A stretch of 61,270 bases of DNA, filler included, from Jimgerdemannia flammicorona (lineage: Eukaryota): the NCBI GenBank assembly GCA_003990765.1. It is 3 parts of 3 records of this genome, joined end to end, with 100 filler letters (N's around TTAATTAATTAA, not from the genome) between each part and the next. Parts side by side here need not be neighbours in the genome. Positions count along the whole stretch, not along the records: positions 20,461 to 40,818 come from RBNJ01001700.1; 2 more parts are not named here. One strand, given 5' to 3'. This document shows positions 14,619-60,691 of this stretch, in pieces. Positions within the stretch are counted from its first letter, which is position 1; the number at the start of each line of letters is the position of its first letter. Position numbers and translations under genes: made by a program. The notes under the pieces were generated by a model, which saw only the letters and a list, made by a program, of their open reading frames with translations, did not search any database and was not told the DNA's origin.

Positions 14619-14786
14619 CTTCTTTTGCTCAAACCATTCAGAGCGAGCTAAGCCACACGGACATCTTTTCGTGAAAAGCAACACGTTTTCAAGTTTTTAC
14701 TTTGTCTATACTGGTGTACAAGGTGTGGCAGGAGTCTAGTAACAGTTTACAGCAAGTTTCATCAAATTCCACAGAGTTTTCATCAA

Positions 14787-16631
14787 ATGGCGACCCAGGG
14801 TTCATCAAGCTCTGAGCACTTGGAGAGAAGGAGGCCTGGCCTGGGCCTCCCCAAGAGTTTTGCAGCAGCAGCTGGGACTGGTGCTGGAGCAGGAGGAGCA
14901 GGTGGTCAAGGAAGGCAGGCTGGTATCGAAAGTTGGCATACAGTGATGGGGGGCAGAAGGGCGGCTACTAGGCCCATGGGAGTAGGGCAGGGGGGATATA
15001 GTGTTGACAGGGGTAGAAGTCAGGTGACCAGCCAGGTGACTGGTCAGGTGACTGGTCAGGTGCCTGCCAGGGGCCAGGGGTCCGGAAGTGGTGCAGCTGG
15101 GACTGGCATTTCTGGGGCTGGGCCTGTGGCTGGGGTAACTGCTGAGATATCTGAGAATAAGAAGAAGGCTATGATGGTGGCAGGCTCTGGTGAACTGGTG
15201 GTGCACCCCTTCTTTCACAAGTCGGTGTTGACGTGGGCTATCTCAGCAAACTTTCTGGGGCTGGGGATGTCTACTAGAGAGGTCTTGTGGCTAGTGGGAG
15301 AGGAGGTTGCTGGGGCAGAGTCACTGAAGTTCATCCCATCAATGGAGGTGGTAGAGATAGGATTTGTGGAGGAGGAGGATATGGCGAAAGCCTTGGAGAA
15401 AGGGCTGGTCATCAAGAATATCAAGGTGGGTATGGTGAGGTGCCTGAGGTGGGACCTGTGTACCATACACCTGGTGATTGAGGGGCTGCTGATGTTGGGA
15501 AGACAGGAGACTAAAGGGATTATAGCAGAGGCACTGGGGGGCTTCGGCGAGATGGTTGACTTTGGGTTCATGTTCTGGGAGGGGACTAAGCTGAGGAATA
15601 GCAACTGCAAGGTAATGATGAGGCTGGAAGGCAAGGAGGCTATAGGGCTAGGGAGGGACTGGCCAGAGGTGATCTGTGTCGAAGGGCAGGAGTGCAAAGT
15701 GTGGAGAAGGAAGGGCTTGGAACAGGAGGAGGAGGAACTGCTAATTGCCCTAGAGGAGAGGGAGGTGGCAAAGGAAGTGTGGAAGAGGAGATGGGAGGAG
15801 TTTGCCAAGGACTGAATCTGGATTCCGATGGATGGGAGGAGGAAGAAGTGGAGGAGGGCAAACTGGGAGTGCTTACAGACAGTCCTCCAGGGCTCAAAAG
15901 TGGAGGAAGAAGAAAGGGCAGAGATGGCCAAGAGTCAGATGGAAGAGGTAGAGACAGCTTAGGTGTCCTATTCACAACTGGGGCAAGTAGAGGACTCGGC
16001 TCATGTGCCAGTAAAGGGGAAGTGGGCTGATAAGGAGGAGACGAATGTAGGGGGTTTTGAGGAGGTTGTCGAGGTGGTGCCAGAGACTCAGTTGGAGGAT
16101 GTTCAGATGGCAGGAGCAGCAAATGTTCATTGGGAATGTCCAGAGACCAGCGAAGTGGTGAGGCTGGAGAAGGGTATGGAGGAAGATAACCTAGTGAATA
16201 TGGCCTCTGATGTGTCGGTGGACAGAGAGATGTTACAGGAGCTGAGCAGGACCCCAAGGCCTGCCACCCCTGGGCCCTTGGTGATGATGGCTGATGATTG
16301 GTATCAGGCAGTACTCGAGGAACTGGCAGAGGAGGATATCAAGGAAGTGGATGTATTTAATGGATCTCAAGAGGCCTGGAAAGGGTTCCTCAATATAGCA
16401 TTACAGGGACCAAAGTTGGTGACAGCGATGGTGGCAGCACTTCTGGATGATGAAGGATATGAGATAGATGAGGACCATATGGCTGACATCAGGAAGGTGG
16501 CATCCAAGCAAGTGAATATATTCTGCAGTGGAGCAAATGGAGCCCGTATCTGGAGGGCAATCTGTGAGGAACAGAAGGCGATTATCTGTGGTCAGGCAGA
16601 GAAGGTGGTGGCGATTTCAGTGGAGCTTTAA
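14787..16631 (+). pseudogene. LINE ORF1: Gly-rich N-terminus, RRM-like middle, acidic C-terminus
   Basis: ORF track 14787..15815 and 15963..16631 share a frame, separated by stops compatible with C->T. Homologous to ORF1 of the neighbouring LINEs. Confidence 0.8.
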
Positions 16632-16646
16632 ACATTTTTATTTATA

Positions 16647-19600
16647 ATGATGAACAGTCTACATATCTTATCATTAAATGTCAATGGTTTGTATGATGGA
16701 GTGAAGTGAAGGCATCTATTTCATTGGCTGAAGGTCAGAAGATATGATGTTGTATTGCTACAGAACATTCGGGCATATGGGGAGCAAGATTATGAAGATT
16801 GGAGTAGGGAATGGTATGGAAGTACTGGTTGGAACGAGCAGGTGGGCATTTTGGTTGGCTTGGGGAGAGGTGAGCTGATGGAAGTTGCAGCATATGGTGA
16901 TTGATTGGTCTGAGGGAGGTTGAAAGGTGGAGCTGGAGATGGACTAGTGGTCGGCTCCGCTTATCTGCCAGTGGTTGGCAGAGAGCAGAACCAATGGGTG
17001 GAAGGCTGGTCGGCTTAGGGAGACAGAGAGGAGGTGGGGCTGGACATTCTAGGGAGGGACTTTAACATGGTACGTGATAGAACATTAGATAGATCTGATG
17101 GTAGAGTTGGTGTGGCTGTATCTACCGGGCTCTTACGGTGGCTCCAGGTAGAGAGGGATATGGGATTGGTTGATGGGGTTCAACAGCATCAAGGGGAAAG
17201 GCCAGGGCCATTCACTAGGTGGCACCTAGTTGGCAAGAACTTGGTTGGAATGAGGATTGATTGGATTCTGGTGGCAGAATGCTGGGGCAATGTATTGGAT
17301 TCAACAGGAGTATGGTGGTGTCCTTGGTCAGATTACTGGGGAGTTGAGGTGTGTGGGAGATTCCAGACAGTCAGTAGAGGTGGGGGTAGATGGTGACTCA
17401 ATATGGCACTACTCAAAAGGCAGGTGGAAAGGGACCAATTTGTGGAAATTGCAAGGCAGGAAGTGGCACAGTGGAAAGACAGTGGACAGTCAATAGTACA
17501 GTGGTGGGGGAAATTCAAACATTTGGCAGGTGCTTACTGGTGGGATGTGGGAGAGGTAGCTGGAAGGGAGCAGAAGGATAGAGAAAGGAGAGTTGAACAG
17601 GGGCTACATTGGCAGCTGAAATCCCTGGAGGGAGAGAATTTATCTAGAGAGAGACACTCCCAGTTGGCTAAGGAGGTGGCTGAATTGTGGCTAGATTTGA
17701 AGGCAGCAGAAGATAGGGTGGTAGATAGGCTACTGGCGAGGTTGTGGGCAAGGCGGTTGGAGGAAGGAGAGCGACCTACTAAGTATTTGTCCAGAATATT
17801 GAAGGCCAGAAGAGTGTGGCACAGCTGGGCTTCAGTGTTGCAGAAGGATGGTGTTGAGGTTACTGGTATTACTGATATGCTTGGAGAGATCTCGGGGCAA
17901 TGGCGTGCTCTATGGCAAGATGGAGGAGGTCTGGTGGAGGGAGTGTCTCTACTAGAGGATAATGACAATCTTGTTAGCAGCTGGCCAGTGGTGGCAGTGC
18001 CTGAGATAGGTGGGGTGGTAATGAGTAGGGTGGCCCTTGAAGAGGTTTTGGAGGTACTGCGGAAAGTGCAGGCTGGCTCATCACCAGGAGAGGATGGGCT
18101 GCCTTGGGAGTTCTGGAAGGAATTCCAAGTCGAGTTTGGGGGATGGCTTGTTGAAATGGCAAACTTTGTGATAGGTGAAGGCTGCTGGGTTGGCAATGGC
18201 TCCTTAGGGTTAGTCTCTCTGCTCTACAAGGAGAAAGGGGATTGCCGTGTGTGGCAGAACTGGTGGCCCATTATGGTACTGAATGTAGATAGGAAGTTGA
18301 TATCCAAGATCCTGGCTAGGAGGATGCAACATTGGATTGGCCAATTGGTGGGTAAAGAACAGCAAGAATTTGTGAAGGGGAGACAGATCCAAGACAGCAC
18401 AGCCTGGGTGCAAAATGTATTAGAGGGCTGTCGAAGCTAGCAAGTGGATGGGAGAATAGTGTTCTTGGATCAGGAAAAAGCATATGATAGAGTGAGGTGG
18501 GACTATCTGGAGGCAGTTCTGCGAAAGACAGGATTCAGTATAGTGGAGGCTTGAAAACTGATGGGCCTGGTGCAAAGCTGTCAGGCTGTGGTCCTAATGA
18601 ATGGGTGGAGTGGCCCAGAGTTTGTCTTGGGGAGAGACATGCCACAGAGGGATCCTCTCTCACCCCTACTCTACATCCTATCCTTGGAGCCTCTGTTGAC
18701 ATGGTGAGAGGAAGGCTCACCAGGCTGAAGATGGGGGAGGTGGTCTGGAAGCTGGGGGCCTTCGCTGATGATATGGTGGTAGGGTTAGGCTGTATGGTGG
18801 ATGTAACAAGACTGCAGGAAGGAGTGAGGCAGTATGAGAGGCTGGCAGGGGTGAAGCTGAATTGGGGCAAGTATGAGACTATGGAGCTGGGAGCTGGTTT
18901 GGGAGAATATGGACATCTTGGTCAACTGGTCCATACAGAAGAGGCAGTCCGATATCTGGGTGTCTGGTTCTCAGTATATGGAACAGTTTGCCAAAGGAGT
19001 GGTGGAGTGGAATGATACAGAAGTGGGAGAATGCCTTGGTAGGCTGGTCAGGGAGGGGCTTCTCCTTGGTGGAGAGGATTGTAGTTCTGAATGTATATTG
19101 GCTACTGAAGCTGTGGTATTTGGGATATCATTTGGACTTTCCCAGTTGGGTGGTACAGAAACTGAAGAAGGTAGTGGAAGGATGGCTGTGGCAAGGAAGA
19201 AGACCACAGATTAGTTGGGAGACAGTAGTGATGCATACAGTAGATGGTGGATTGGGGCTGGTGGATTTTAGGAGGCAGCTGGAGGTGCTTCAGGTTTGGT
19301 GGGGCTGTCGATTGGCTGAATTAGAAGTGGATAGTTGGGGCAAACTGGCTATGGACAATTGGGAAGTCAGGTTTTGCCCCCATGGTAAGGTTCGAAAGGA
19401 TATACGTGGGTTGCTACAGATTGGAAGGGTTAGCAGATTGCAGTACTGGGGGTTCTGGTGGGGCATTGTAGAAGCTTGGCTGGCAATGAGCCTCACAGGT
19501 CCGGAGCCGGATAAAGAGGAGGATATGGAATAGAGATGGTGGCGACTTGGCAATATTTGTATTGGTGGCCACTGGTTGGCAGAATACTCTCTGTCTGGGG

Positions 19601-20265
19601 CAATGGAATGGATCTGGATGGGTCCACTTGAGAGATGGCCAGTTGGTTGGCAGAAGGCTGGATTTGGAGAAGATTGGGAGTGGGGCCCGGTTTGGGAATG
19701 GGGGACCTCATTGCTCAAGGTTATACTACCTAAGTTCTGGGTGGTATGGGTGGAGGAATGTCATGCTGGGGTACAGGATAGGGTGGATGGAGGCTGAAGG
19801 TGTGAGGGTATGCAAGTAGTATTGTGAGCTAGATGGGAGTGTGGTGCAGACACCGGAGCATGTTGTGGCAGTATGCCCAGGGGTGGAGGGATTTTGGCAG
19901 ACATTGGAAAGCTACTGGAGTGGCAAAAGTGAGCATGCAGGGGGCCCCACTAGTCGGGTGGTCAAGCGGCAACTGGTGGGCGAGATTGGGGACATTTGGG
20001 GGGGCCTAGGCCGGATTATTGGCATCTGGGTCCTGATGGTGATACACTGGCGATGGGTGTTCGAGAAGGATCCTTGGATGGGGATTGGCAAATTGGTGGA
20101 GTGGTGGAAAGGGTTGCTTCTGGAAGTGGTACAAGGGTGGTAGTATCAGGGGAAGAGGTACCAGTTGGGAGCCATGAGGAAGGTACTAGACATTGTCTGG
20201 AAAAGTCAAGAGCACCTAGTACTTAGTGAGAAGGGGGTGCAGTGGAAAGAAGGAGTTGGCTGATA
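16647..20265 (+). pseudogene. LINE ORF2: AP-type endonuclease, reverse transcriptase, C-terminal Cys/His motif
   Basis: ILSLNVNGL, DVVLLQ, RDFN, IDWIL, SSPGEDG, NWWPIMVLNVDRKL, DQEKAYDRV, DPLSP, FADD, YLGV, C..C..TPEHVVAVCP; several stops and frameshifts. Confidence 0.9.
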
Positions 20266-20360: not shown

Positions 20361-20460
20361 NNNNNNNNNNNNNNNNNNNNNNNNNNNNNNNNNNNNNNNN
20401 NNNNTTAATTAATTAANNNNNNNNNNNNNNNNNNNNNNNNNNNNNNNNNNNNNNNNNNNN
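20361..20460. other. Assembly gap with artificial six-frame stop spacer
   Basis: N-run containing TTAATTAATTAA at 20405-20416. Confidence 0.95.
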
Positions 20461-20885
20461 TTACCAGTCAGGGTCAAGGGTAGAGGGCCAATTACATCCA
20501 TTGCTATATGGGCAAATGGTACTGGTTCTATGTGTGCTGATCCTGGGGCTTGATTCCATTGGTCTTGTTTCTGTTTCTGGCATTTGTCGCATGTTTTGAC
20601 GAATTGTCTGATGTCTTCCTCCATTCCTGGCCAACATATTGTTCTTCTTGCCTTATCATATGTATTCGTTCCTCCTAGATGGCCAAGTTCATGTACTGAT
20701 TTCATCGCTTGCTCCTTCTTGTGTTCTGGTATGACCAGTAGTTTTCCTTTCTTCAGTGTTTCTCCATCGGTTTCGAATTGTTTCCATGTCCTGTTGATAA
20801 TTGTTTGTGTCCATTCTTCCAGATGTTGGGGCATCTTTCGCTGTCCCAGGTATGTGATGATCCTGTAGTAGAGCTCCTTATTCAT
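20461..20885 (-). CDS. Integrase N-terminus as a separate ORF (truncated by the gap)
   Basis: ATG at 20885: MNKELYY..HELGHLG..WPGM..CDKCQ..PFAHIAMDVIGPLP. Different frame from RNase H. Confidence 0.85.
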
Positions 20886-23800
20886 GATTGATTTGTTGGT
20901 TGGAGGTGGTTCGAGGTGTCTGTGAGAGAGCATCTGTATTGGAATTTGTTCTTCCAGGGCAGTGCACGATGGTTACATCATAGGCTTGTAACTTCATTAT
21001 CCATCTGGCATAGATTCCCTTGGGTTGTCCAGTTGTCAGTAGCCAGGTGAGAGCTGAGTGGTCTGTCTGGATGGTGAAGTGTCTTCCGGCCAGATAGTAG
21101 TGGAACTTTTCCACAGCCCAGATGACTGCAAGGCATTCCAACTTGTAGGACTCATATTCTTTTTCAGCTCCTCGGGTTCCGCAGCTAAGATATGTAATGA
21201 CATACTCTTTTTTGTCTTCTTTTTGAGCTAGGACTGCTCCTAGTCCTTGTGCGCTTGCATCCGTCTGAAGGATAAATTCTTGAGTCCAATTGGGTCATCT
21301 GAGGATGAGTGCCTGAGTTAGTCTGATCTTGAGTTCATCAAATGCTTTTTGTTGTATGCCAGTCCACTGGAACTTGGTATCCTTCTTGTTGAGTTCGTAG
21401 ATTGGGCCTGCAATGTTGGAGAATCCTCTAATGAATCTGTGATAGTAGGAGGCAAGTCCCATGAAGGCTTGGGTTTCCGTGACAGTAGTGGGCCTTGGGT
21501 ATGCTGCTACCACTTGTATTTTGAGGGGGTCCGTGTGTGTTCCATCTCGATTGATGATATGGCCAAGATAGGAGATCTCGATTTCTGCAAACTTGCACTT
21601 CTTGGGTTTGATATAAAGGCCATATTGTCTTAGTCTCTCCATTATCTACTGTATGTGCTGCAGATATTCCTCAGGTGTCTTGCTGTAGATAATTACATCA
21701 TCAACGTAGACCATCATCCATCTTCCCATGTCATAGTGGAAGATTTTGTTCATCATTTTCTGAAAGCTTGCTGGTGCATTGCACATTCCGAATGGCATTT
21801 GTAGGTAGATGTAGGTTCTGTCTGGGGTGATGAAGGCTGACTTTTCACTTGCCATTTCTGTGAGTCCGATTTGGTGGAATCCTGAGTATAAATCCAAGGT
21901 GCTGTAGTACTGTGCTTCGTCTCCCAGTGTTATAAGAATGTTGCTGATGAGCAGCAGTGGTTGGCGATCCTTCTTGGTGACTGCATTGAGCTTTCTGTAG
22001 TCAACACAGAGCCTTGGGGCAAATTCTCCAGGTTTGCTTCCTTTTTTCGGGGCTAGTACAACTGGTGAAGACCAGGGGCTGCTGGCTTCTTTGATGATAC
22101 TGGCTTCTTCCATCTGCTTGATTTCTTCTCTGAGCCATTCTCGGTAGGCTGGCGGGACAGGTCTTGCCTTCTGGTAAATTGGTTCAGTGTCTCCAGTATC
22201 TACCTCATGATAGTAGTGTGGGGTCTTTCCCTTGATATCCTTGAAATCCGTGGCAAGGACATTCTCGAATTTGTGGAGTATTTTCTTGAGTTCCTCCTTG
22301 AGTGGGAATTCATCTCCAATGGTATAACTGTGCTTGCTCGTGTTTTCCTCCTTCTTGTGCTTGAGTTCAGTGATCTTGGTGCTGGCAAATACTCCTCTTC
22401 CTGTGGATCCGAATCCTTTCTTTCCTCTTTTCGTTTCCTCCAGATTCTTGACTTCTATGATTCTTGGCTGTATGATTGGGAAGATCAACATCTGTGCCAA
22501 TCGGTCCTTCTTCTTGACTGGGAATGGAATTGTAGGATTGTGGTTCCTAGCAATGAGTAGAATTTCTCCAGTACAGTCTGAATCAATGACTCCTCCTTCG
22601 ATTGTGATTTCGCTTCTAGCCAGACTGCTTCTTGTCTTGAGAATCCTGACATAATCCTTTGGGATGGTCATCTCTAGTCCAGTTGCAAGTAGGGTGGTTA
22701 TCTGGGGTTCGAGTACAGTTTCTTCTACTGTAGTGATGTCCATTCCGGCTGCATTTTCTGACTTGTATTCTGGCAAGACTGCATTGGGGTGGATCCTTCG
22801 AATCTTGACCTTGATTTCTTCTTCATCATCGCTGTCCTCCAGGAGGGCTGGTGGTTCATCATCTTCCTCCTTCCCTTCTTCCCTGATCTGTTTTTCGAGA
22901 GCTTTCTGGCTTCTTTTCTGGTAGATCTTCCTGGTTCCGATAGTGCACTGGTAGCAATCATTGACATGCTCCATACAGTACATCTTGATTCCATGAGGAC
23001 AGACTCCTTGTAGGGCATAGCCTTCTGCAATCTTCTTGCACCATTCTTCTTCACTCATCCATCCGACTTTCTTCTTCTTTAGAGTAGTTACCATATAAGC
23101 TTCCTCTTGCTCGCTCTCTTCTTCCTCCATATTGGGCAGGACTCCTTTGTTGACATTGATGGGAATTCGTATCTTCTGTCCCTGGTAGGTGATTTGCATC
23201 TTCTGGACATTAAGATCGATTACTGCCTTGGCTTTGTGAAGCCATTGATTGCCAATGAGGATGTCATAGTTGGTGGCATTGGTTATGATTACATCTACTG
23301 GGATTGTTACTTCTCCGATCTTGATGGGAACATCTTGGATCTATCCCAGAGGTGTGGCTCTTGTGCCATTGGCTGTGATGAATACTAGCTTGGTTGCTTC
23401 TTCCACATCCCAACCTAGGCAGTCTGCTGCCTTCTTACTGAGGAGACATCCTCCTGCTCCTGTGTCAATGATGGCTTCAAAGACTCGATCCTCAATTTGG
23501 CATGTTGCATAAGCAGAGATTTTGCGATTGTCCTCACTTTCTTCTCCTGAGTCCTCTTGAACATTATTGGCCTCAGTTATCTTCCATCCTTGTTCCTTGG
23601 TTGTTTCAGCAAGTCCAAACCTCATTTGCTGTCTAAATGTTGGGATTTCTGCGAGCTGACCAAAGGTTGCATTGACCTTTTGTTGGCTGAGATCCTTGAA
23701 GATAACATACTTGAAGGTCTTGGTCTTGCAAAGCTTCTTTTCTTTTTCTCCTTCACTGGCTGGAGTGGTTTCTCGGATGATATCTTGAACTGCTTGCTCC

Positions 23801-24929
23801 AGCTCAATATCCTGGTCCATCTCTTCGGCTTGACTTTCCATGGCAGTTTCCATCTGCTTTTCCACTGGGTTCTTCTTGGGTCTTTCTGGCGGTCTCTTGT
23901 AGGGTTCTTTGCGAACATCCTTCTTAGTGGTCTGAGCAGGATAGGCCTCCCATTCCTCTTCATCGGATTCTCCGATTTCTTCGAAGGTGATTATATTGGC
24001 CTGCTCCTTGTTTCATATGGCATTGCTTGGTTGAGCCTTGTGTTTGGTTTCACTCATACATTCATAGGAGTAGTGGCCTTCTTCTCTGCAGCTGTAGCAG
24101 GTACCTTTCTTCTTATCTGAGGTGGCGGCAAACTTCTGAACAGAGTGGCAATCTCTTCCTTGGATTTCCTTTACCACATCTCCCAGGTGGGCAGTCATTT
24201 CAGCAAACCTTTTGGCAAGTTCCTCCATAGGGTCACTGTTCTTTTGCTGCTCTGTAGCTTTTGGCTGAGGTGTGTTTCGATTGATCATTGTGGTGGGGAT
24301 CACACTGGTTGCCTTGGGTGCCTCGATTCTGACTTCTGTAACTCTTTCCATTATATGGTCTTGTGGGTGTCTGGCTATCTAGTATCGCTGAGCATAGGTG
24401 ACCCTCTGTGGCAGATCCAGAATCACTGGTGATGAGCAAAATGGCCATGGCTATTTCTGGATAGACTCCTTTCATGAAGGTTGCTTCAGCTACTTGATCT
24501 CGGGTAGTAGCAGCATAATCTACAAGGATTATCTGATATCGAATTCTGGTATAAAATGTGTTTGGATCCTCACTCATTCCTTGGTACGTTGTGTTGAGCT
24601 GATCCTTCAGGGCTTGCTTGATCTTGTCTGTATAATATGTATTTCAGAGCCAGGTCTTCTGTACTGTCAGTACAGCATCGGCATTATTTCCTGCATGGGT
24701 TGTGGCTGTGAATGCTGCTCTGGTAGGGCCTCATAGGCTGAAGGGCATGAGGGCTACTTGCTGTGCTGCTGTCAGGGTCCTTACAGCAGCATACTGCTCG
24801 AAATCGTCAATAAAGGTGATGATTGATTCATCTGAGGTATATCCATGGAATACTGGTGGTCTCATATCCATCTTATCTGGGTATTGGGGCTCAGTTTGTA
24901 TGGTTGTTCAGGTGGTGGCAGTTGTTCAT
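20878..24929 (-). pseudogene. Gag-protease-dUTPase-RT-RNase H polyprotein in a single frame
   Basis: ORF-track segments starting at 24351, 23865, 23199, 21642 and 21141 are all in one frame, broken by point stops. One small frameshift in early gag. Confidence 0.88.
22400..22812 (-). CDS. dut: Trimeric-type dUTPase domain within the polyprotein
   Basis: All five motifs: AGMD, RSSLA, GVIDSD(C/Y)TGEI, DRLAQML, RGKKGFGSTG. Confidence 0.95.
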
Positions 24930-24985
24930 TGTTCAGCTTGAAAGTGAGGGATTCATCTTGAATCACCAGCCAATGGGCACCAAGT

Positions 24986-25461
24986 TGTAATGTAGCGGAT
25001 GCTTACTCTTGAAAGTACGTCGGATTTCTGTATCTTGAAAACTTAACTGTTCTGACTCTCGCAGAGTCTCTTGAAGTGGCAGGGGAGAGTGGGTGAGTTC
25101 GAAGTATATCTGCCCACAGGCTTACTAGTTCCTTTGCTATCTCTTTGCTTTGAACTATTTTGATCTGAGGTTTATTCACTCGAAGATACTGGGTTATTTA
25201 TACAAGTTTGCTAGCTATGAGAGGGTGGCTAAGTAATAAATGAGTCATTTGGACTTTGTCGAAACATTTGGACAATGTCTAAATGCTATACTAAATCGGG
25301 GTATCTGATTTGGATAATGTCTAAAATTTAGACAATGTCTAAGAATTTAGACAATGTTGAAATCGAGGACTGCTAACTATAAGGCTATACTACTTTGGAA
25401 ATGGGTGCGATCAAGTGTCTATTCCCTATTTCCTTCTTCCCAATTTGGCTATACCATCACA
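24986..25461 (-). repeat. 5' LTR (476 bp), short-LTR type
   Basis: Reverse complement begins tgtgatggtatagcc and ends ctacattaca, like 60046-60500. PBS TGGTGCCCATTG adjacent. Confidence 0.92.
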
Positions 25462-32895: not shown

Positions 32896-33339
32896 AAATT
32901 ATACTAGTATCTTGAACCTGTACAACCATCAGTGCTGACCCTAGAACTTAGCAGTTTTTCCTGTTCTGGCATTTTATTTTAGTTATTGGAATTTATATTT
33001 AGCTTTCTACCTTAGCAAACATTGAATTATATTTTATATAAATACCCCTCTTATTTCCTCTGAAATAAAGTCAGTCAAGTTTCAGTCAAGTTCACTTACT
33101 CTCAATTCCATGCAAGCCATCTAAGAGATAACAAGACAGTTAAAGATAAGAAGTTTGAGGACTATAAGACTTTGGGAAGGCACTTCAATAAGAACTTGCT
33201 TATAACAAACTTGAGTTAGTCTAAGAGATATACCTTGAAGAGTATCTGGTATATTTGAAGGACTCAGTGACCACTACTTGACAACTTGGTGCCCATTGGC
33301 TGGTGATTCAAGATGAATCCCTCACTTTCAAGCTAGAAA

Positions 33340-36300
33340 ATGAACAACCCCCACAACAACTACCCTGACTATAAGATTCACCCCTGCAAGAATTCAAGAT
33401 AAGATAGAAATGCATCCCTCCACATTCTATAGATATACTACTGAAGAGTCAATCCTGACCTTTATTGAAGACTTTGAACAATTTGCTGCTGTATGATCTC
33501 TTAGTGTGGATGCACAATTGGCCCTTCTACTAGTCAGCCTCAGTGGACCTGCCAGAGACAAGTTCAATGCAGCCACTATTGCTGATAATGGTGCAGCCAA
33601 ACTTGCCAATATGAAGGCCTTCCTCAGAATAACATATTATACTGAAGAGATCAAGCAAGCTCTCAAGGATCAACTCAATACTATCTGCCAGAGACTTAGT
33701 GAAGATCCCAACTCATTTTATATCTGAATCTACTACCAGATTGTTCTGGCTGGCTATAATGATGCCCTCAAGAAACAAATAGCAGATTCAACCTTCCTTA
33801 AAAGAGTTCACCCTGAAATTGCCCTAGCAATCCAGTCTACCCCAGCTGTACTGACCCTTGATCAGGAAGTAGTCTTTGCACAGAGATATTGGACTGCCAG
33901 ACACCCTGCCAAACACTCAATGAAGAAAATAACTGGCATCAAGATAGAGCCATCAAAGCCAACTAGTATTATATCCACTACAGTTGTAAACAGACAACCA
34001 ACCCCACCTACCCCCAAGACAACCAAAGCTGACCCAGTGAAAGAACTTGCCAAGCAGTTTGCCAAGATGACTGCATATCTTAGAGATGTTGTTAGAGAAG
34101 TCTGAAGCACCAACAAGAGACAAGTATAGATATTTGCAGCTGCTACAGAAGAATGCAATATCACATACTTCAGATATGGAGAAGAAGGCCACTATGTAAA
34201 GAATTGTATGACTGAAACAAGACACAAAGCCCAACTAAGCAATGCTAGCAAAACCAGAGAACAAACCAATACAGTAGTCATCGAGGAGATTGGTGATACT
34301 GATGATGAAGAATACTATGAGGAGCTTGAATTCTACCCTGCTACTGAAGGTACCAGAACCCAGTCCAAGCCCTATAACAAGAAGAGCAACAGTAAGCCAG
34401 TTGGAAGACCAAAGAAGACTCCAGCTGTCACTATTCAAAGCAAGACTCAACCTAAGGAGATTGATCAAGATATGGAGTTAGATGAAGCTGCCCACCAAAT
34501 CATTGAAGGCACTACTCCAGTCTTAGGAGAAAGTGAAAGCAAGAAGGAACAGAAGCTGTGCAAGACCAAGATCTACCAGTGTGATATCTACAAGGATCTC
34601 AAGGAACAGAAGGTCAATGCTACCTTTGGACAGCTAGCTGAAGTCCCTGCCTTCAGACAGCAGTTGAGAGTAGGACTTACAACTACTGCCAAGAATCAAG
34701 AGTACAAGATTGTAGAAGCTCACAATATACAGAAAGAATCTGAGAACTCAGGTGAAGAATCCAAAGACCAGTGTAAGACATTAGTCTATACCCTATGTCA
34801 GATTGAAGACTGTATCTTTGATGCCATCATTGATACTGGTACTAGAGGATGCCTCATGAGCAAGAAGGCAATTGACCACCTAGGCTGGGACATTTAAGAG
34901 TCCACCAAGATGGTTTATGTTACAGCAGATAGTATATGAGCTACCCCCCTTGGCAAAATCTGAGAAGTCTCCATCAAGATAGAAGGAGCTACCATCTCAG
35001 TAGATGTGATTGTTACAAATGCCACCAACTATGACATTCTCATTAGCAACCAATGGCTTCACAAGGCCAAGACCATCATTGACCTCAATGCCCCAAAGAT
35101 GCAGATCAACTTTAGAGAAAGAAAGGTATGAGTCTCTATCAATGTCCACAAGGGAGTCCTACTAGACATGGAGGAAGAAGATGAAGAAGACACAGAGGTC
35201 TTCATGCACTTGGTGACCAAGAACAAGAACAAGAACAAGACACCTAAGCTCACAGATGAGCAGTGGTACAACAAGATCATCAATGGGTATGCCTCTCAAG
35301 AAAGATGCCCCCATGGTACTAGGATGTACTGCTCTGAATACCTGAATGACTGTTGGTCCTACATCAGTAAAGTCAGGAAAATCTGCCAACAGAAATACAT
35401 ATAAGCAAGAAGCCACCAAAGCAAAAAAGAAAGCCGAAGAAGATGACCAGCCCCCAGAGCTTCAAGCTGACAGTGATGATGAGGAGGAATAAGAATCAAA
35501 CATTATCCTCAAAGTCATGAAATTTCACCCTGAAGCCAAGATCCCAGAATACAAGACTGAAAGAGCCATAGGAATGGACCTTGCCAGCATTCAAGATACT
35601 ACCCTTGAACCACAGGCCACTACCCTACTTGGCACTGAAATTGGAGTCAAGCTGCCAGAAAACCATGCCAGAATTATCAAGATCAGGAGCAGTCTGGCCA
35701 AAAGCGAAACCTCAGTTGAAGGAGGAGTAATTGACCCTGATTACACCGGCAAGATCTTCCTCATAGTCAGGAATCACAACACCACCACCCCATTCGAAGT
35801 CAAGAAGCATGACAGGATTGGCCAGATGCTGATCCATGAAATCAAGAAGCCCAAGATCATAGAAGCCATCAAACTCATCAAGACTAAGAGAGGAGAACAA
35901 GGCTTTGGATCTACTGGAAGAGGAGCCTATGCTGCCACCAAGTTACCAAACTTGAGCACAAGAAAGACAAGGACCAGAACAAGCACACATATACTATTGG
36001 AGAAAACTTTTCCCTGGAAGAACAACTTCTCAAGATCCTGCATCAGAATGAAGGAGTACTTGCTACAGACTTCAGGGATATCCACAATCAAGAACCCAAG
36101 TACTACTACAAAGTTGACACTGGTGATACCAAGCCTATCTACCAGAAAGCCAGACCCATACCACCTACCTACAGAGAATGACTGCAAGCAGAACTCAAGG
36201 AAATAGAAGAAGTCAGAATCATCAAACAAGCTATCAGCCCCTGGGCTTCACCCATTGTCCTTGCCACAAAGAAAGGAAGCAAGACTGGAGAGTTTGCACC

Positions 36301-38627
36301 AAGACTCTGTATTGACTACAGGAAGCTCAATGCCATCACCAAAAAGGATAGACAGCCCTTGCCAAATATTCAAGAGATCCTTACCACTCTTGAAAATGAA
36401 GCCAAATACTACACCACCTTGGATCTGTTCTCAGGCTTCCATCAGATTGGTCTCACTCAAGATACCAGTGAGAAATCAGCCTTTATCATACCTGATGCCA
36501 CCTATATCTACCTGTGAATGCTATTTGGAATGTGTAATGCCCCAGCAAGTTTCCAGCAAATAATGAACAGAGTCTTCAGCAATGAGATTGGAAAATGGCT
36601 CTTTGTCTATGTTGATGATGTGATCATCTTCAGCAACACTGTATGGGAACATGTCAATCATATACAGCTAGCCCTCAAGAAGCTCAAGAAGCATGGCCTT
36701 TACATCAAGCCCAAGAAATGCAAGTTTGTGGCTCAGGAAATTACCTACCTAGGACACCTCATCAACCAGACCAGAATCCACACAGACCCCATGAAGATTG
36801 AGGCTGTTGCAGTCTACCTGAGACCCAGAACAATCACAGAAGTCCATGCCTTCCTTGGACTGGCCAGCTACTACAGAAGGTTCATCAAAGGATACTCCAA
36901 CATTGCAGTACCTATCTATGAGCTACTGAAGAAGGAGACCAAATTCGAATGAACCAAGGAGTATCAAGAAACCTTCAATAAACTCAAGACCAGGTTGATC
37001 CAAGCACCTATCCTCAGAAGACCAGATTGGAACCTAGAATTTATCCTGCAGACAGATACGAGTACTATAGGACTTGGAGCAGTCCTAGCTTAGAAGAAAG
37101 ATGGACATGAATATGCCATCTCCTATACAAGCCAAGATACCCATGGAGCAGAACAAAACTATGAGGCATGCAAGCTCAAATGCTTGGCAGTAGTCTGGGC
37201 AGTAGACATGTTCCACTACTATCTAGCTGAGAAATACTTCACTATTCAAACAGACCATTCTGCCCTTGCCTGGCTATTCCACACTCTGAACCCCAAAGGA
37301 ATATATATCAGATGGATCTACAGGCTGCAAGAGTATGACTGTACTGTCAAGTATCACTCAGGAAAGACTAATACTAATGCCAATACACTCTCAAGGACAC
37401 CCCAAAACACCCCCATCAAGACTATTCAACATAAATAAGAAGCTATACTATGAATTAATCAGCTATCTTGGGCAGTGGAAGATACCCAACTACCTCAAAC
37501 CCTGGACAATCACTATCATTAACCAGACTTGGAAACAGTTTGAACTAGACAACACTATACTCAGAAAAGGTAGAAAGCTAGTAATACCTGAACACAAGAA
37601 GTATCAAGTAATGAAGGAAGTACATGAGCAAGGATACCTAGGAGGAACCAATACATATGACAAGGCAAGAAGAACCATATGGTGGCCCAAGATGGAAGAA
37701 GACCTGTGCCAATTTGTCAAAGAGTTTGATAAGTGCCAAAAACAGAAATAAGATCAGTAAGACCAGGTACCTGGGTCATCAAGAATTGAGCCTATCTCCT
37801 TCCACCACATTGCAATAGATATTATTGGACCACTACCAGTAACACTCTCAGGAAACTGCTATATTATAGTTATTGTAGACCTCTTCACCAAATGGATAGA
37901 GGCAGGAGCATTACAAGAAGCCAATGCTCTCTCTATAGCTGACTTCCTGTACCAAGAAATCATCTGCCACTACAAGACACCAAAGCAAATCACAACAGAC
38001 CACAGCACAGAATTTATCAATGGATTCCATGAGATAATATATCAGAAATACAAGATCCAGCACATCAAGACCACCATGTACCACTTTCAAGAAAATGGAC
38101 AGACAGAGAGAACCAATAAGACCCTTAAGAACATCCTAGTGAAGATCTCAGAGACATATGAGAATTGGGATAACTATCTCCCAACTGCCCTCTCTGTCCT
38201 ATGAGACATATGGTCACAGAGCACAGACTTTACCCCAAGAGAGCTGCTCTTCAGAGAAGAAGATTCTGATGGAACCTCAGGTACAAATCTGGACCTAACT
38301 TAGAGATAAGTTGATGCAGAAATCTGGAGACTATACCAAATCAGGAAAAAGGCTGAAGATTACATCACCAAGTCACAAGCACTGATAGGGAAGAATGCAG
38401 AAAAGAATCACAAGACTCTAGAACCTATCTGAATTGGAGAAAAGGTTCTACTATATTGAAATATGGTAGAAGCCTCATGGTCATGAAAACTGGAGCCCAA
38501 ATGGGAAGGACCCTTCTATGTGCAAGATATCAAAGGAACCACCTTCTGACTCAGAAAAATCTCAGGAACCATACTGCCTACCATGGTACATAGGAACAGA
38601 CTCAAGAAGTACTATGAACCTATATAA
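33340..38627 (+). pseudogene. Decayed gag-PR-dUTPase-RT-RNase H (to 37438) and integrase (37431-38627)
   Basis: IIDTGT, RSSLA / GVIDPDYTGKI / RGEQGFGSTG, YVDD, TDH, IDIIGPLP, ITTDHSTEF, KWEGPF. Confidence 0.9.
35502..35918 (+). CDS. dut: dUTPase domain
   Basis: IGMDL, RSSLA, GVIDPDYTGKI, DRIGQML, RGEQGFGSTG. Confidence 0.92.
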
Positions 38628-53971: not shown

Positions 53972-54358
53972 ATTGTCTAAATCAAACACCCCGATTTAGT
54001 ATAGCATTTCGACATTGTCTAAGTTTCTAGACATTGTCTAAATGACTCATAACTTAGCCACATAACTCAGTAGCCATTGCATAGCTAGCAAACTTGTATA
54101 AATAACTCAGTATCTTGGAGTGAATAAACCTCAGATTGAAAGTGTTAGAAAAAGAACAAGTATACCAATAAAGGGACTTTCGGGATTACCTCTTTAAATA
54201 CATTTGGCCTCAAGGAACTACTGACTCTGGGAGTCAAGAAGACAAGAATTCAAGATAAAGAAATCTGATGTACTTGCCCATCTTAACATCTGCTACGTTA
54301 CAACTTGGTGCCCATTGACTGGTAATTCAAGATGAATCCCTCACTTTCAAGCTGAACA

Positions 54359-57300
54359 ATGAACAACTGCAACCAGAACCCACACAACACAATCAGACAG
54401 AATGGATATGAGACCACCCATATTCCATGGATATACCTCTGATGAATCAATCATCACCTTCATTGATGATTTTGAGCAGTATGCTGCTGTAAGAACCTTA
54501 TTGGCAGCACAACAAGTAGCCCTACTCCCTGTGAGCCTATGAGGCCCAGAAAGAACTGCGTTTACTACAGCTAATGTACAATGAGCTGACAATCCAACAA
54601 GAATCCTGGCCTTCAAGGCCTGGCTTCGAGTAACCTATTATACAGATGAAATCAAACAAATACTCAAGGATCAACTGAATACCATCTGCCAAGGAATGTC
54701 TGAAGACCCAAACACATTCTACACAAGAATCCGACATCAAATAGTCCTTGCTGACTACCCCAATGCAGTTCAAGACCAAGTGGCTGAGAATACCTTTATG
54801 AAAGGCATTTACCAAGAAATCACTTTAGCCATTCGATCTACCTCAACACCACTAGACCTGGGACAGAAGGTTACCTACGCCCAAAGATATTGGACTGCCA
54901 GACACCCTCAAGGCCATACAATGGAAAGGATAACTGGAGTAAAAATCAAACAAGCACCAAGAGTCACCAATATAATCTCGGCCACCATAGTTAACCAGAA
55001 TACACAACCGCAACCACAAGACTAGAGAAGGGTCGACCCAATGGAGGAACTGGCCAAACAGTTCGCAGAAATAACTGCACACCTCAGTGATGTAGTCAAA
55101 GAGTTCAAGAAGAAGCCAGTACAGAAGTTTGCTACTACAAATGCAAGATGATCCATAATATGCTACAACTGCGGAGAAGAAGGCCACTATGCCTCCGAAT
55201 GCATAACAGAAACCAAGTGAAAGGCCAACCCAAGCAATGCAACCAGGAACCGCAAGCAGGCAAACACTATCACCTTTGAGGAGATTGGAGAATCTGAGGA
55301 AGAAAGAGAGGAATGGGAAGCTTACCCTGCTACCTCAAGTAAGAAGGATGCCCGATCTAGTTCTTACAAAAAATCTCCAGGCAGACCTCCTAAGAAGACC
55401 CAGACACAAATAAAGTAACTGGAAGTTGTCATTAGAAATGAGACCCAGCAGAGTGAAGCCGATCAAGAAATAGAGTTGGAACAAGATGCTAAACTGGAAC
55501 AAGCAGTAGAAGATATTATTCGAAATACTACCCCATCAAGCGAAGGGAAGAAGGAGCAGAAACTGCACAAGAGCAAGACCTTCAAATATGACATCTTCAA
55601 GGACCTCAAGGACCAAAAGGTCAATGCAACCTTTGGCCAGCTGACTGAAATCCCAACATTCAGACAATAAATAAGAACAGGAATCTCAGACATCAGCAAA
55701 GACCAAGGTTACAGAATAATCAAAGCCAACAATGCACAAGAAGATTCAGATGAAGAGAGTGAAGATAATCAGAAAACATCAGCCTATGCTACCTGCCAGA
55801 TCGAGGACTGGGTCTTTGAAGCCATCATTGATACAGGAGCAGGAGGATGTCTCATCACCAAGAAAGCAGTAGACTGCCTAGGTTGGGAAATAGAAGAAGC
55901 CACCAAATTGGTGTTTGTCACAGCTGATGGGACATGAGCAACACCCTTGGGAAAAATCCAAGACGTACCAATCAAGTTCGGAGAGGCCACTATCCCTGTG
56001 GATGTCATCATCACCAATACAACCAACTATGATATCCTCATCAGCAATCAATGGCTTCATAAAGCCAAGGCAATGATTGACCTCAGTGCACAGAAGATGC
56101 AGATTGTCTACTGGGGAAAGAAGATCAGAATTCCCATCAATGTCCACAAAGGAGTCTGCCCCAAGATAGAGGAAGACCAAGAAGAAGAAGTCTATATGGT
56201 TACTATGAAGAAAGGAAAAGGCAAGCAATTGACAGAGGAAGAATGGTATACAAGAATCGCAGATGGATATGCCCCCTAGGAAGGTGCCCCTATGGTGAAA
56301 GAATGTACCATGCCCAGTACTTGGATCGCTGCTACACTTGTATCATTGAGGTAAAGAAGATCACCAACAAGCCAAAGAAGAACCAGGAGGAACCAGAAGA
56401 TGGACCACCAGAACTACTGGATGACAGTGATGATGAAGAAGATGTCACAGTCAAGATATAAAGAATCTACCCTGATGCAGTCATGCCACAATACAAATCA
56501 GAGAATACAGCAGAAATGGACCTATCCACCACAATACACACAATACTCAAACTACAGACCACTATCATTCTAGGAACAGGAATTGAAGTAACCATCCCGC
56601 CAAACCACGTCGGAATCCTCAAGACAAGGAGCAGCTTGGCAAAGAGTGAAATATCTATAGAAGGAGGAGTCATCAATTCAGATTATACTGGAGAAATCCT
56701 TCTCCTTGCCAGGAACTACAATCCAACAATCCCATTCGAAGTAAGGAAGAAGGATCAGCTGGCACAAATGCTCATCCTACCTGTCCTTAATCCAAGAATC
56801 AAAGAGGTCACAAACATCAGACAGACTCAGCGAGGAAAAGCTGGATTCGGCTCTACAGGAAGAGGAGTCCTCGCAGCAACTAAGATCACCAAATTGGAGT
56901 ACAAGAAGGAGGAAAGCCAAGACAAACACACCTATACAATCGGAAGAAACTTCCCACTCAAGGAAGAATTGCAGAGCCTCTTGCATACATTCGAGGATAT
57001 ACTGGCCACAGATTTCAAGGATATCAAGACCAAGAAACTCTTGTATTATCATGATGTCAATACTGGAGATGCAAAGCCAATCTATCAGAAGGCCCACCCC
57101 ATTCCACCAGCATACAGAGAATGGCTCAAGACAGAGATCAAGGAAATGGAGGAGTCTGATATTATTGAAGAAGCCAGCAGCCCTTAGTCCTCTCCCATCG
57201 TCCTTGCACCAAAGAAAGGAAGCCAACCAGGAGAATTTGCACCAAGACTCTGTATGGACTATAGAAGACTCAATGAGGTCACAGAGAAGGACAGACAACC

Positions 57301-58381
57301 ATTGCCCAATATTGGTGACATTCTTATTATGCTAGGGAATGAAGCACGATTCTATACCACCTTGGATCTATTCTCTGGATTCTACCAAATCAGCCTCATG
57401 TCTGAAGCCAGCAAAAGGTCAGCCTTCATCACCCTAGATGGAACTTATGTCTATCTCTGCATGCCCTTTGGAATGTGCAATGCACCAGCAAGTTTCCAGC
57501 AAATGATGAATAGTATCTTCAGGAATGTAATGGAAAAATGGATGATAGTATACATAGATGATGTGATCATCTTCAGCCGAACAGCCAAAGAACACTTGGA
57601 CCATATTGAGGAAATCCTCAGAAGGCTTCACAAACATGGCCTCTATATCAAGCCCAAGAAATGCAAGTTTGGAGAAGAAGAAATTGCATACCTTGGACAT
57701 ATCATCAACCATGAAGGAACACATATGGACCCTACAAAGATCAAGGCAGTAGCAGCATACCCAGTACCTACCAGCATCACCAAAGCCCGAGCCTTCATGG
57801 GACTTGCATCCTACTACAGAAGATTTATTAGAAGTTTCTCCCACATTGCCAGTCCTATCTATGACCTGTTCAGAAAAGAGGTCAAGTTCCAGTAGACTCA
57901 GCAGCAGCAACTAGCCTTTGACAAGCTCAAGACCAGATTGACCCAGGCCCCAATCCTGAGAAGACCCGACTGGACTCAAGAGTTTCTTCTGCAGACGGAT
58001 GTCAGTGCAATGGGACTTGGAGCTGTCCTCGCACAAAAGAAGAATGGTGCCGAATACATGATAGCTTATCTCAGCCAAGGTATACGAGGAGCTGAGCAGT
58101 CCTATGAATCATACAAGTTGGAATGCCTTGCAGTCATTTGGGCTGTAGAGAAGTTCCACTACTATCTGGCTGGCAGACACTTCACCATTCAGACAGATCA
58201 TTTGGCACTCACCTGGTTGCTCACTACCAGTGAGCCCAAAGGAATCTATGCCTGATGGATCATGAAGCTGCAAGCATATGATGCCACAATCACCCACCAC
58301 CCTGGAAGAACCAATGCCAATGCTGATGCCCTCTCATGGACACTCTGAAGGACCCCACCCCTACAAAATCGCAATGAATAA
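54359..58381 (+). pseudogene. Gag-PR-dUTPase-RT-RNase H polyprotein
   Basis: CYNCGEEGHYASEC, IIDTGAG, dUTPase motifs, YIDD, QTDVS, TDH; stops mostly at CGA/CAA/CAG-derived codons. Confidence 0.9.
56449..56860 (+). CDS. dut: dUTPase domain
   Basis: AEMDL, RSSLA, GVINSDYTGEI, DQLAQML, RGKAGFGSTG. Confidence 0.92.
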
Positions 58382-59557
58382 GGAGCTGTACTATGGAATC
58401 ATCAGCTACCTGGAGCAGCGAAAGATGCCCCCGCATCTGGAAGAATGGACAAAAACAATTATTAATCGGACATGGAAACAATTCGAAACTGATAGAGAAA
58501 TACTCAAGAAAAGACAACAATTAGTCATCCCTGAGCACTGGAAGAATCAAGTGATGAAAGAAGTACATAAACAAGGCCACGTAGGAGGAACAAACATATA
58601 TGACAAAGCAAGAAGAACCTTGTGGTGGCCTGGAATGGAAGAAGATATCAGACAATTTGTCAGAACCTGTGACAAATACCAGAAACAGAAACAAGACCAA
58701 TGAGATCAAGCCCCTGGATCAGCAGACATCGAACCAATACCATTTGCCCACATCGTAATGGATGTAATTGGCCCCCTACCCCTGACATTGACTGGCAACT
58801 GATATGTCATTGTAATAGTGGATCTATTTATAAAATGGATAGAGGCCAGACCCCTTAAGGAAGCCAATGCACAGTCAATTGCCAATTTCTTTCATAGAGA
58901 AATCATCTGCTAATTCAAGACCCCAAAGCAAGTTACTACAGACAGAGGAACAGAATTTGTCAACCAGTTCCATGAGGTTCTTTACAAGAAGTATAAGAAC
59001 CAGCACATCAAAACCACAGCCTATCACCTACAAGGAAACGAATAAGCAGAGAGAACCAACAAGACCCTCAAGAATATCATTGCCAAGATCTGTGATGAAT
59101 ACGGAAACTAGGACCACTATCTTCTAATAGCATTATCCACTCTGTGGGACATACAATCACAAAGCACCCATTTTACACCATGAGAAATGCTATTCAGCAA
59201 AGAAAGTTCTAGTAGAAGTTTGTCAGCAAATAATAATGCAATTTGGAAGCATGTGGACATGGAGATATAGAGATTACACCAGATCAGGAAAAAGGCAGAG
59301 GATTACATAATCAAGGCGCAGGTACTGCAATGGAACAATGCGGAAAAAACCCACAAGCTCCAGGAGATTATTAAGATAGGAGATGATATCGGAATATGGT
59401 AGAAGCTTCTTGGTCATGAAAACTGGAGCCTAAATGGGAAGGACCTTACCTGGTGCAAGATATAAAAGGGACCACTTTCCGACTACAAAAGCTCTCAGGC
59501 ACAATAATCCCCACCACTATTCACTGAAACCGACTCAAGAAGTACCATGGCCAATAA
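58374..59557 (+). pseudogene. Integrase (separate ORF)
   Basis: ATG 58374 MNKELYY; HKQGHVG, MDVIGPLP, VTTDRGTEF, AERTN, KWEGPY; no chromodomain. Confidence 0.88.
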
Positions 59558-60008
59558 CCAGAGCACTGCAGCAGCACTCAAGATCACTAGTGCTGCACAA
59601 AAGGCTATCGAAAGACAATGGTGCACCACCGAGCCTCCAACTATAGAGGAATGTTATGATAGTATTTAGAGTATTGTGCAGACTCATCTCTCTTAGATCT
59701 TGCATTTTAGCATCTACCAACATCAGGCAGAGTTCCAAGAGTACTTCAAGCTTGGACAGGTGCTTAACCAGGATCCAGCTAAGACCAAAGAAGACTGGAT
59801 CGCAGAGTGCCAACTCTCTTACTCACAGATCACTATCGCCAAAAGGATCCACAAGCTATTTTGAGAAGATGAATCAGCATTAGCTCACCTGTGAGGAGTA
59901 ACCCCTACCGACTTTGATAAAGTAAGGAGACATCATTGAGAGACAGTTATGCAGCAAATTGAACAGTACAAAACCATACAGACAGTTGAAGCCTGGGAGT
60001 TTGAATAG
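59547..60008 (+). pseudogene. Accessory ORF (copy C, 154 codons) after integrase
   Basis: ATG overlaps the integrase stop. One frame with five internal TGA/TAG stops compatible with C->T. EYFKLGQVL..IAKRIHKLF*EDESALAHL*GVTPTDFDKV. Confidence 0.75.
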
Positions 60009-60045: not shown

Positions 60046-60500
60046 TGTGATGGTATAGCCGAATTAGGAAGAAGGAAATAGGGAATAGATACTTGATCGC
60101 ACCCATTCCCAAAGTAGTATAGTTTATAGTTAGCAGTCACCGATTTTGATATTGTCTAAATTTCTAGACATTGTCTAAATCGAACACCCTGATTTAGTAT
60201 AGCATTTTGACATTGTCTAAGTTTCTAGACATTGTCTAAATGACTCATAACTTAGCCATGTAACTCAGTAGCCATCGCATAGCTAGCAAACTTGTATAAA
60301 TAACCCAGTATCTTGGAGTAAATAAACCTCAGATCAAAAGTGTTAGAAAAAGAATAAGTATACCGATAAAGGGACTTTCAGGATTACCTCTTTAAACATA
60401 TTTGGCCTCAAGGAACTACTGACTCTGGGACTCAAGAAGACAAGAATTCAAGATAAAGAAATCTGACATACTTGCCCATCTTAGTGTCTGCTACATTACA
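60046..60500 (+). repeat. 3' LTR (455 bp)
   Basis: Direct repeat of 53972-54302; TG..CA termini. Confidence 0.93.
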
Positions 60501-60691
60501 ATAGCCAGATTATCATATTTCTATTAGGCTGAAGCTATCAATATAGTGATATACATATATATATAATAAATATATATCTCAAGTATTAAGTAAGGAATCT
60601 GGCAATAATAATAAGTATTTCAGAGATGATGATCTTACTCCTGAAGAGTTATAGAGCAGAATAAAGTCAAATATATATATTATATTAATAT

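Follow-up and report, generated by a model that had tools for sequence, protein, structure and literature searches.

The stretch of DNA considered here, referred to as the window, comprises 61,270 nucleotides (nt) of Jimgerdemannia flammicorona, made up of three parts of three records of GenBank assembly GCA_003990765.1 joined end to end by filler letters. Judged by homology, the window contains four decayed copies of one Ty3/gypsy-like long terminal repeat (LTR) retrotransposon family. The ancestral layout of this family, as reconstructed from the copies and their relatives, is one long open reading frame (ORF) encoding Gag, protease (PR), dUTPase, reverse transcriptase (RT) and RNase H (RH), followed by a separate +1-frame ORF for integrase (IN). 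On the comparative evidence, this split IN layout is kept by selection through long divergence and is not a result of decay. The best explanation of the whole, namely a selected, separate +1 IN ORF that is translated from its own AUG by termination-reinitiation, is favoured by a modest balance of probability.

The four copies were delimited by self-comparison of the window, and are 67-72% identical in pairs:

20461-25318, minus strand: copy 1, with the end of IN cut off by an N-run
about 33271-38616, plus strand: copy 2
46980-51084: fragments of copy 3, in which the junction is not reached
53972-60501, plus strand: copy 4, with 332-nt LTRs
53972..54303, plus strand: 5' LTR of copy 4, 332 nt, 93.4% identical to the 3' LTR
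60170..60501, plus strand: 3' LTR of copy 4, 332 nt

Three of these copies reach the border between RH and IN, and in all three (3/3) the RH frame terminates and the IN frame opens at +1:

20885-20878, minus strand: start/stop overlap ATGAATAA of copy 1, with the IN ATG at 20885-20883 and the Pol-frame TAA at 20880-20878
58374..58381, plus strand: start/stop overlap ATGAATAA of copy 4, from the sequence as read and the junction alignment
37431..37438, plus strand: junction ATAAATAA of copy 2, with ATA as start codon and the Pol-frame TAA retained

The RH frame of copy 1 reads ...AAT CAT GAA TAA at this point and the +1 frame reads c ATG AAT AAG GAG CTC..., such that the upstream frame ends in ..INHE-stop and the frame one base on gives MNKELYYRIITYLGQ.., followed by an HHCC zinc finger. 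Viewed frame by frame, the corresponding sequences are ATGAATAAGGA at 58374 in copy 4 and ATAAATAAGAA at 37431 in copy 2. Conservation of the Pol frame runs to ..NADALSR, after which a variable tail of 12-15 residues leads to the stop; in the +1 frame, conservation starts exactly at M and not upstream of it. The sequence-only reading had described the same junction in copies 1, 4 and 2, with ATG changed to ATA in the last, and both the letters at these positions and a gap-free alignment of the three junctions over 201 nt bear this out. Since the three junctions are common by descent, chance is not at issue, and the question becomes whether the layout is kept by selection. The frames on either side of the junction are as follows:

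20878..23340, minus strand: Pol frame of copy 1 from the end of PR onward, ending ..DALSQTPRTTSNQQINHE-stop, with two internal stops
about 22399-22782, minus strand: dUTPase of copy 1 (Pfam PF00692, 5.8e-26)
about 21553-22050, minus strand: RT of copy 1 (Pfam RVT_1, 1.5e-31)
about 20980-21366, minus strand: RNase H of copy 1 (Pfam RT_RNaseH, 3.4e-34)
20461..20885, minus strand: first 141 codons of copy 1 IN (MNKELYY.., HHCC zinc finger), in the +1 frame (Integrase_H2C2, 7.1e-19)
20781..20885, minus strand: first ~35 IN codons of copy 1, a candidate RNA signal, with the lowest synonymous divergence of the IN ORF
56462..58381, plus strand: dUTPase-RT-RNase H frame of copy 4, ending ..NRNE-stop
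58374..59564, plus strand: IN ORF of copy 4, decayed, with 10 in-frame stops (Integrase_H2C2, 1.1e-16; rve, 4.2e-11)
35900..37438, plus strand: RT-RNase H frame of copy 2, ending ..IQHK-stop
37431..38627, plus strand: IN ORF of copy 2, decayed, with 10 in-frame stops, in the +1 frame (Pfam)

Pfam also recognises RVP_2 in the upstream frame of copy 1, and finds Integrase_H2C2 in the +1 frame of copies 1, 2 and 4, with rve in copies 2 and 4. The dUTPase (PF00692) occupies residues 187-314 of the protein P0001, between PR and RT, and is present in the closest database relative, P0005, as well as in the homologous parts of copies 2 and 4. A CCHC knuckle (C-x2-C-x4-H-x4-C) was read by eye in the Gag translations of copies 1, 2 and 4 and of the relative L001 described below. 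Copy 1 IN stops short after 141 codons at the N-run 20361-20460, and this copy has a frame change within gag and in-frame stops. Copies 2 and 4 each hold several private frame changes and about 10 stops apiece in IN alone, many of them at positions occupied by Trp or Arg codons in intact relatives; among related contigs the changes are mostly transitions, as expected for decay of the deamination type.

A metagenome scan yielded four close relatives, L001-L004, that are better preserved. L001 is a nearly intact contig of 6.5 kb, in which a Gag-PR-dUTPase-RT-RH frame of about 1,330 codons runs from 627 to a TAA at 4617, interrupted by one internal TGA; the IN ATG lies at 4612, the junction reads ATGAATAA, and IN holds one premature stop. 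L002 carries ATGAATAA at 173, and its IN ORF is unbroken for 415 codons. In L003, the IN of which is 58% identical, the ATG (258) and the TGA of the Pol frame (266-268) form ATGGAGCGTGA, and the stop is situated 3 nt beyond the stop place of ATGAATAA, at 8 nt versus 5 nt after the A of the AUG. L004 (52% identical) shows a TGA at the corresponding position, in the frame used by Pol in its relatives; the contig starts just before this TGA, and any Pol sequence and ATG would lie beyond its end. The overlap ATGAATAA is thus found in four of the five main-family sequences, copy 2 having ATAAATAA and the more distant L003 having ATGGAGCGTGA, and an ATG is present at the DNA level in 5/6 junction sequences. 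As L002, which is close to copy 2, has the ATG, the ATA of copy 2 is a later change in a dead copy. Contigs at least 80% alike, from three soil-metagenome runs and one coded-organism run, also cover the stretch. These read-derived contigs are short and constitute a weak data set (four runs); they contain no indel within 20878-20885, and each of the indels seen at 20889-20906 occurs in a single low-depth contig, with a net change of 0 or -2.

The copies differ by 28-33% in DNA and the two LTRs of copy 4 by 6.6%. LTR divergence is therefore far below copy divergence, which indicates that most of the latter predates insertion and accumulated in replicating lineages that already had the junction. 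By the Nei-Gojobori method, dN/dS is 0.07-0.14 for RT-RH in 6/6 pairs and 0.05-0.28 for IN in the 11 of 21 pairs with unsaturated synonymous sites, synonymous sites being saturated in many pairs; the remaining 10 IN pairs show a synonymous difference (pS) of 0.75-0.81 and a nonsynonymous difference (pN) of 0.16-0.33. Because the IN values lie in the range of RT-RH, IN has been under the same purifying selection while in the +1 frame. The sequence-only reading had held random decay to be unlikely, and this view gains from the purifying selection on IN, from the split being kept in L001 and L002, and from the same layout in L003. Neither L001 nor L002 has RH and IN in one continuous frame, the arrangement in the youngest intact copies that, on the same reading, would have spoken against it. 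Its statement that Gag to RH form one frame does not describe the window copies, where frame changes and stops interrupt it, and holds for L001. When the IN alignment was used to scan other collections, viral contigs gave only matches of 24-28% identity, and genome contigs gave bacterial IS-type integrases only; neither collection supplied junction DNA from the wider clade. In contrast to the present family, 15 of the 16 distant gypsy loci retrieved by the metagenome scan (L005-L019) have RH and the following IN in a common frame, many of the set L005-L020 being copies from the same two samples and not independent. The sixteenth, L020 (5045-6633), is a distant gypsy element of 29-34% identity with RH and IN in different frames, which may reflect decay or an independent split.

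Stand-alone IN proteins of the same kind are numerous, and the layout is, on protein comparison, shared by many elements that form a large clade. With the L002 IN as query, a word-based search gave about a hundred proteins that are 400-450 residues long and 40-50% identical, and of the 47 inspected nearly all start M-N/D-x-x-L-Y-Y; against longer proteins, the same query found fused Pol-IN sequences at no more than 36% identity and 219 bits. The protein sets derive from length-restricted word searches and one unrestricted search, in which a profile built from 47 stand-alone INs was compared with 1.84 billion representatives of any length, followed by re-scoring of 507 proteins per domain. Every domain score of at least 350 bits belongs to a stand-alone IN or a fragment thereof, the best fused protein scoring 349. 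The top long matches, of 2,000-3,600 residues, were considered as fused relatives and rejected, as each is a chimeric gene model that joins a number of ordinary copies, gypsy- or BEL-like, and sums their bit scores; their per-domain scores are below 330. All 108 proteins that cover the first position of the profile at 350 bits or more have M there. This M is residue 1 in 103 of them and lies internally, behind an extension, in the other five, and the codon there is hence truly one for Met. At residue 2, N occurs in 64 proteins, D in 38 and E in 6. A stop at the +5 place is compatible with residue 3 in no more than 54 of these 108 proteins, and so the N/D/E rule is not a by-product of the overlapping stop; by this argument from sequence, it must act on the protein or its N-terminus. 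Met-Asn, Met-Asp and Met-Glu constitute the class of N-termini acetylated by NatB. From the invariant Met together with the residue-2 rule in 108/108, IN is very probably translated from its own AUG.

A tree of 213 IN domains (121 stand-alone, 80 fused and 12 intermediate), obtained from a single FastTree run on IN only, puts the window family in a clade of 89 tips, all of them stand-alone, that has support of 0.991. This clade is nested in one of 123 tips (support 0.998), the other 26 tips of which are noted as 18 stand-alone, 5 fused and 3 intermediate. Full-length stand-alone ORFs recur across many contigs in clusters at 90% identity, as in one where 10 of 13 members have exactly 430 residues. 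The nearest Atlas clusters of IN-only proteins, of ~390-417 residues, are labelled Rotifera and Mucoromycota and serve as a lead only. The IN chain of prototype foamy virus (PFV), 395 residues in length, aligns over its residues 46-302 with query residues 46-305, and from this match in register the start of the ORF lies close to that of a mature IN that has an N-terminal extension domain. One relative of 292 residues, P0409, has the RH end motif ..QALSR.. in the same frame, 13 residues before its MNSETY start, and may be a copy inside the stand-alone clade that is fused or bears an indel.

How ribosomes reach the IN AUG, some 4 kb along the RNA, is a separate matter, and termination-reinitiation after the ~1,330-codon ORF is given about an even chance of being the route. 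Ribosomes completing the upstream ORF would terminate beside the IN AUG, and a fraction of them would re-initiate there, perhaps assisted by an RNA signal within the first ~100 nt of the IN ORF, to yield free IN in lower amount than Gag-Pol. The free IN would then have to join the particle or pre-integration complex by binding and not as a part of Gag-Pol. Reinitiation is favoured on account of the stop lying 5-8 nt after the AUG, the purine at -3 and the lowered synonymous change downstream. Across the four lineages with DNA, in differing letters, the distance from the A of the AUG to the Pol stop is 5 or 8 nt, and stop and start fall within 11 nt in these lineages (for both statements L004 contributes the stop only); a purine is present at -3 in 6/6 junction sequences. 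In a scan of synonymous divergence along IN (L001-L004, six pairs, 83 windows of 20 codons), where mean pS is 0.78 with a standard deviation of 0.12, the first four windows of the ORF are also the four with the lowest values, at pS 0.51-0.58, which suggests RNA-level constraint in the ~100 nt after the stop. As described in the available part of PMC10275272, long-ORF reinitiation involves a stop and a start within 20 nt of each other, the start often being upstream and out of frame; its efficiency is 3-20% in caliciviruses, and in the retrotransposon SART1 it relies on downstream RNA structure. The junction geometry seen here matches the features given there, and the putative downstream constraint may do so. 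More tentatively, a large undescribed gypsy-like clade may make free IN by reinitiation, with a signal that is not of the TURBS (termination upstream ribosome-binding site) type and probably lies in the first ~100 nt; translation would then dose IN, its recruitment to the particle would take place in trans, and the Met-Asn/Asp/Glu N-terminus would be functional, for example as a target of N-terminal acetylation.

A number of points weigh against this account. The calicivirus-type TURBS motif UGGGA (motif 1), which pairs with 18S rRNA and belongs to a structured element, is found in 0/6 sequences between -150 and -1. The RNA following the stop folds no more stably than shuffled sequences (z from -2.1 to +0.8 in six sequences), and while two small hairpins recur there, the consensus fold is weak at -12.3 kcal/mol, with compensatory change in 3/19 pairs. 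The dip in pS is based on four sequences and reaches roughly p 0.05, and the geometry of the junction is known at the DNA level from four lineages showing two geometries. Among the 108 proteins a stop at the +5 place is excluded in at least 54, and thus the stop position varies. For the 103 predicted proteins, the M is the choice of gene callers and its codon could be GTG or TTG, and the scoring profile, having been built from stand-alone INs, favours them. Furthermore, tight overlaps also arise through simple compaction, and reinitiation after an ORF of ~1,330 codons would be unusual in a eukaryotic cell.

IN might instead be translated from its own AUG on a spliced or internally promoted subgenomic mRNA, or by way of an IRES (internal ribosome entry site), in which case the overlap with Pol would be mere compaction. 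This is rather unlikely, and it accommodates much of the same evidence, given that the invariant Met and the N/D/E at residue 2 fit it equally well and that LTR elements and retroviruses are generally known to use subgenomic RNAs, such as those for retroviral env and foamy-virus pol. The composition upstream of the AUG is also suitable: the preceding 40 nt are rich in C and A and poor in G (2-6 G of 40), as would suit an unstructured leader, four of the six sequences fall within the lowest 3.5% of L001 windows for this composition, and the last 36-55 nt before the IN start lack an AUG. However, the upstream sequence has no AG acceptor conserved in position, and the homologous site reads CAG, TGG, CGG, AAG, AAG and CGG in the six sequences; the copy 1 sequence CTCTCTCACAG, which resembles a 3' splice site, was rejected as an acceptor as its AG is not conserved in the other five. 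Nor would such an mRNA or an IRES explain why the Pol stop has stayed 5-8 nt from the AUG in differing lineages. The synonymous minimum after the stop is likewise left unexplained, though an IRES or enhancer could account for that.

A programmed +1 frameshift at or before the Pol stop, generating a minor Gag-Pol-IN fusion to which the ATG would be incidental, is improbable. Such a fusion would solve the packaging of IN, upstream of the ATG the +1 frame has no stop for 30-47 codons, and a slow codon could be provided by the 0-frame stop. Established +1 sites include GCG AGU U in Ty3, CUU AGG C in Ty1 and, in antizyme, a site at UGA; these have in common with the present junction a downstream +1 frame and a 0-frame stop, and the GCG TGA A of L003 resembles both the Ty3 site and the GCG UGA C of yeast antizyme. 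Unlike those systems, the present lineages have no conserved shift heptamer (three lineages read GAA TAA G, GCG TGA A and CAG TGA A), and the codon before the stop varies among GAA, GCG and CAG, with AAA in the decayed copy 2; what is invariant is the AUG and the class of residue 2. A shift at the stop would skip the M and the N/D/E that are found in 108/108, and as internal residues both would be expected to vary. The beginning of +1-frame conservation exactly at M is also at odds with a fusion. Of the three mechanisms that the sequence-only reading had proposed, the frameshift fusion is therefore disfavoured by the invariant M and N/D/E, and reinitiation and subgenomic RNA both remain.

An inherited defect, in which an ancestral 1-nt indel killed IN and the copies survive as non-autonomous passengers of intact elements, is very improbable and already contradicted. 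In its favour, every copy in the window is decayed, defective LTR elements are generally known to be mobilised in trans, and P0409 seems to hold ..ALSR.. and the IN Met in one frame, but the dN/dS of IN is 0.05-0.28, as in RT-RH, a 415-codon ORF like that of L002 has a neutral chance of about (61/64)^415 or roughly 2e-9, L003 and L004 share the layout despite a different stop place, 103 stand-alone INs start at the same Met, and the fused form is absent among the close relatives searched. A variant genetic code was considered and rejected, since the Gag-Pol frame of L001, at about 1,330 codons, contains one in-frame TGA, and nothing IN-like appears when TAA in the Pol frame is taken as a sense codon.

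By homology, the family is a member of Ty3/gypsy (Metaviridae) with a variant expression layout. It shares with that group its LTRs, the CCHC Gag, the order PR-RT-RH-IN and the parts of IN itself, namely the HHCC finger, the DDE core and a GPY-type C-terminus, and the best solved-structure match to IN is the Ty3 Gag-Pol of the intasome (7q5b, 2.3e-24). In canonical Ty3/gypsy elements, as in textbooks at large, IN forms the C-terminal end of Pol, from which the protease frees it, and recoding takes place at the border between gag and pol. Here, gag and pol share a frame, and IN occupies a separate ORF at +1 that has an AUG of its own. A partial parallel is provided by the foamy viruses (Spumaretrovirinae), in which the PFV IN aligns in the same residue register as the present ORF. 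Foamy-virus Pol has its own AUG, is not fused to Gag, and is recruited to particles by binding. In these viruses the whole of Pol, including IN, is separate from Gag and made from a spliced mRNA, whereas in the present family only IN is set apart.

Stops and starts a few nt apart, with the start upstream and out of frame, likewise occur at calicivirus VP1/VP2 and influenza B M1/BM2 (the TURBS systems), and adjacent out-of-frame ORFs joined by UAAUG occur in the hypovirus CHV1 and at SART1 ORF1/ORF2, according to the available portions of PMC10275272 and PMC2699510. In reinitiation of the TURBS or SART1 type, as far as those portions go, the second product is expected in lower amount, as is proposed here. 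The present junction differs from both in lacking UGGGA (0/6) and significant structure and in following an ORF of ~1,330 codons, and its second ORF encodes an enzyme of an LTR element, as opposed to the capsid- or matrix-type proteins of the viral reinitiation systems. A dUTPase between PR and RT has precedents in Juno, Vesta and TelKA of bdelloid rotifers (PMC5408684, in part) and in basidiomycete PosPlaTy3-5 (PMC2864245, in part), which were compared by published description. The pol order given for them in the accessible text is PR, RT, RH, IN, with no mention there of a separate IN ORF; Vesta1b and Mag are described in the same part of PMC5408684 as lacking a gag-pol frameshift. A separate IN ORF goes likewise unmentioned in the available portions of PMC5911963, PMC2864245, PMC10275272, PMC13468544, 10.1101/073510, PMC2582038 and PMC5408684, and no description of one in an LTR element was found in the literature covered, which left most subscription journals and Repbase outside.

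If the proposed arrangement is correct, the stoichiometry and packaging of IN could be solved differently from the textbook model, and a third way of organising retroelement enzymes would stand beside the Gag-Pol fusion and the spliced Pol of foamy type. To our knowledge, few cellular or transposon examples of long-ORF termination-reinitiation exist, and the clade would offer a natural, sequence-diverse test set for this process in eukaryotic cells. Annotation pipelines that expect a fused Pol will label such elements as broken.

Within gag, an in-frame TGA at codon 47 (..SL-stop-GP..) is shared by copy 1 (24731-24733, minus strand), copy 4 (54540-54542, plus strand) and L001 (771-773), copy 2 having AGT (Ser) at this place. 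The 46 codons before it show strong purifying selection in that clade, with pN of 0.04-0.06 versus pS of 0.31-0.45. This codon, in the context TGA GGC CC, looks like a second recoding site, operating by stop read-through or reinitiation.

Outside the copies, the window seems to contain only AT-rich spacer (23-28% GC) and the remains of transposons; a host gene was not recognised, and Pfam applied to 10 other window ORFs returned RT fragments only. A fragment of another reverse transcriptase lies at 2367-2774 on the plus strand (RVT_1, 2.1e-11), and 18491-19015 shows only a faint trace of RVT_1. The region 7500-20000 contains about 12 kb of very strong GC skew, +0.43 to +0.53, at 47-53% GC. It includes a 2.3-kb internal repeat, 7509-9777 versus 12361-14615, that is 75% identical, and long plus-strand ORFs without a Pfam match, such as 14652-15815 and 17397-18440. 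Paired N-blocks of 44 nt, 12 nt apart, are located at 20361-20404 and 20417-20460 and again at 40819-40862 and 40875-40918; the first pair ends copy 1 within IN, and the second lies about 250 nt past a tandem array. This array, of short tandem repeats over ~1.5 kb (39102-40568), is situated directly 3' of copy 2, and all three of its minus-strand frames are open for 464-488 codons, encoding repeats of the GQD/GKM type.

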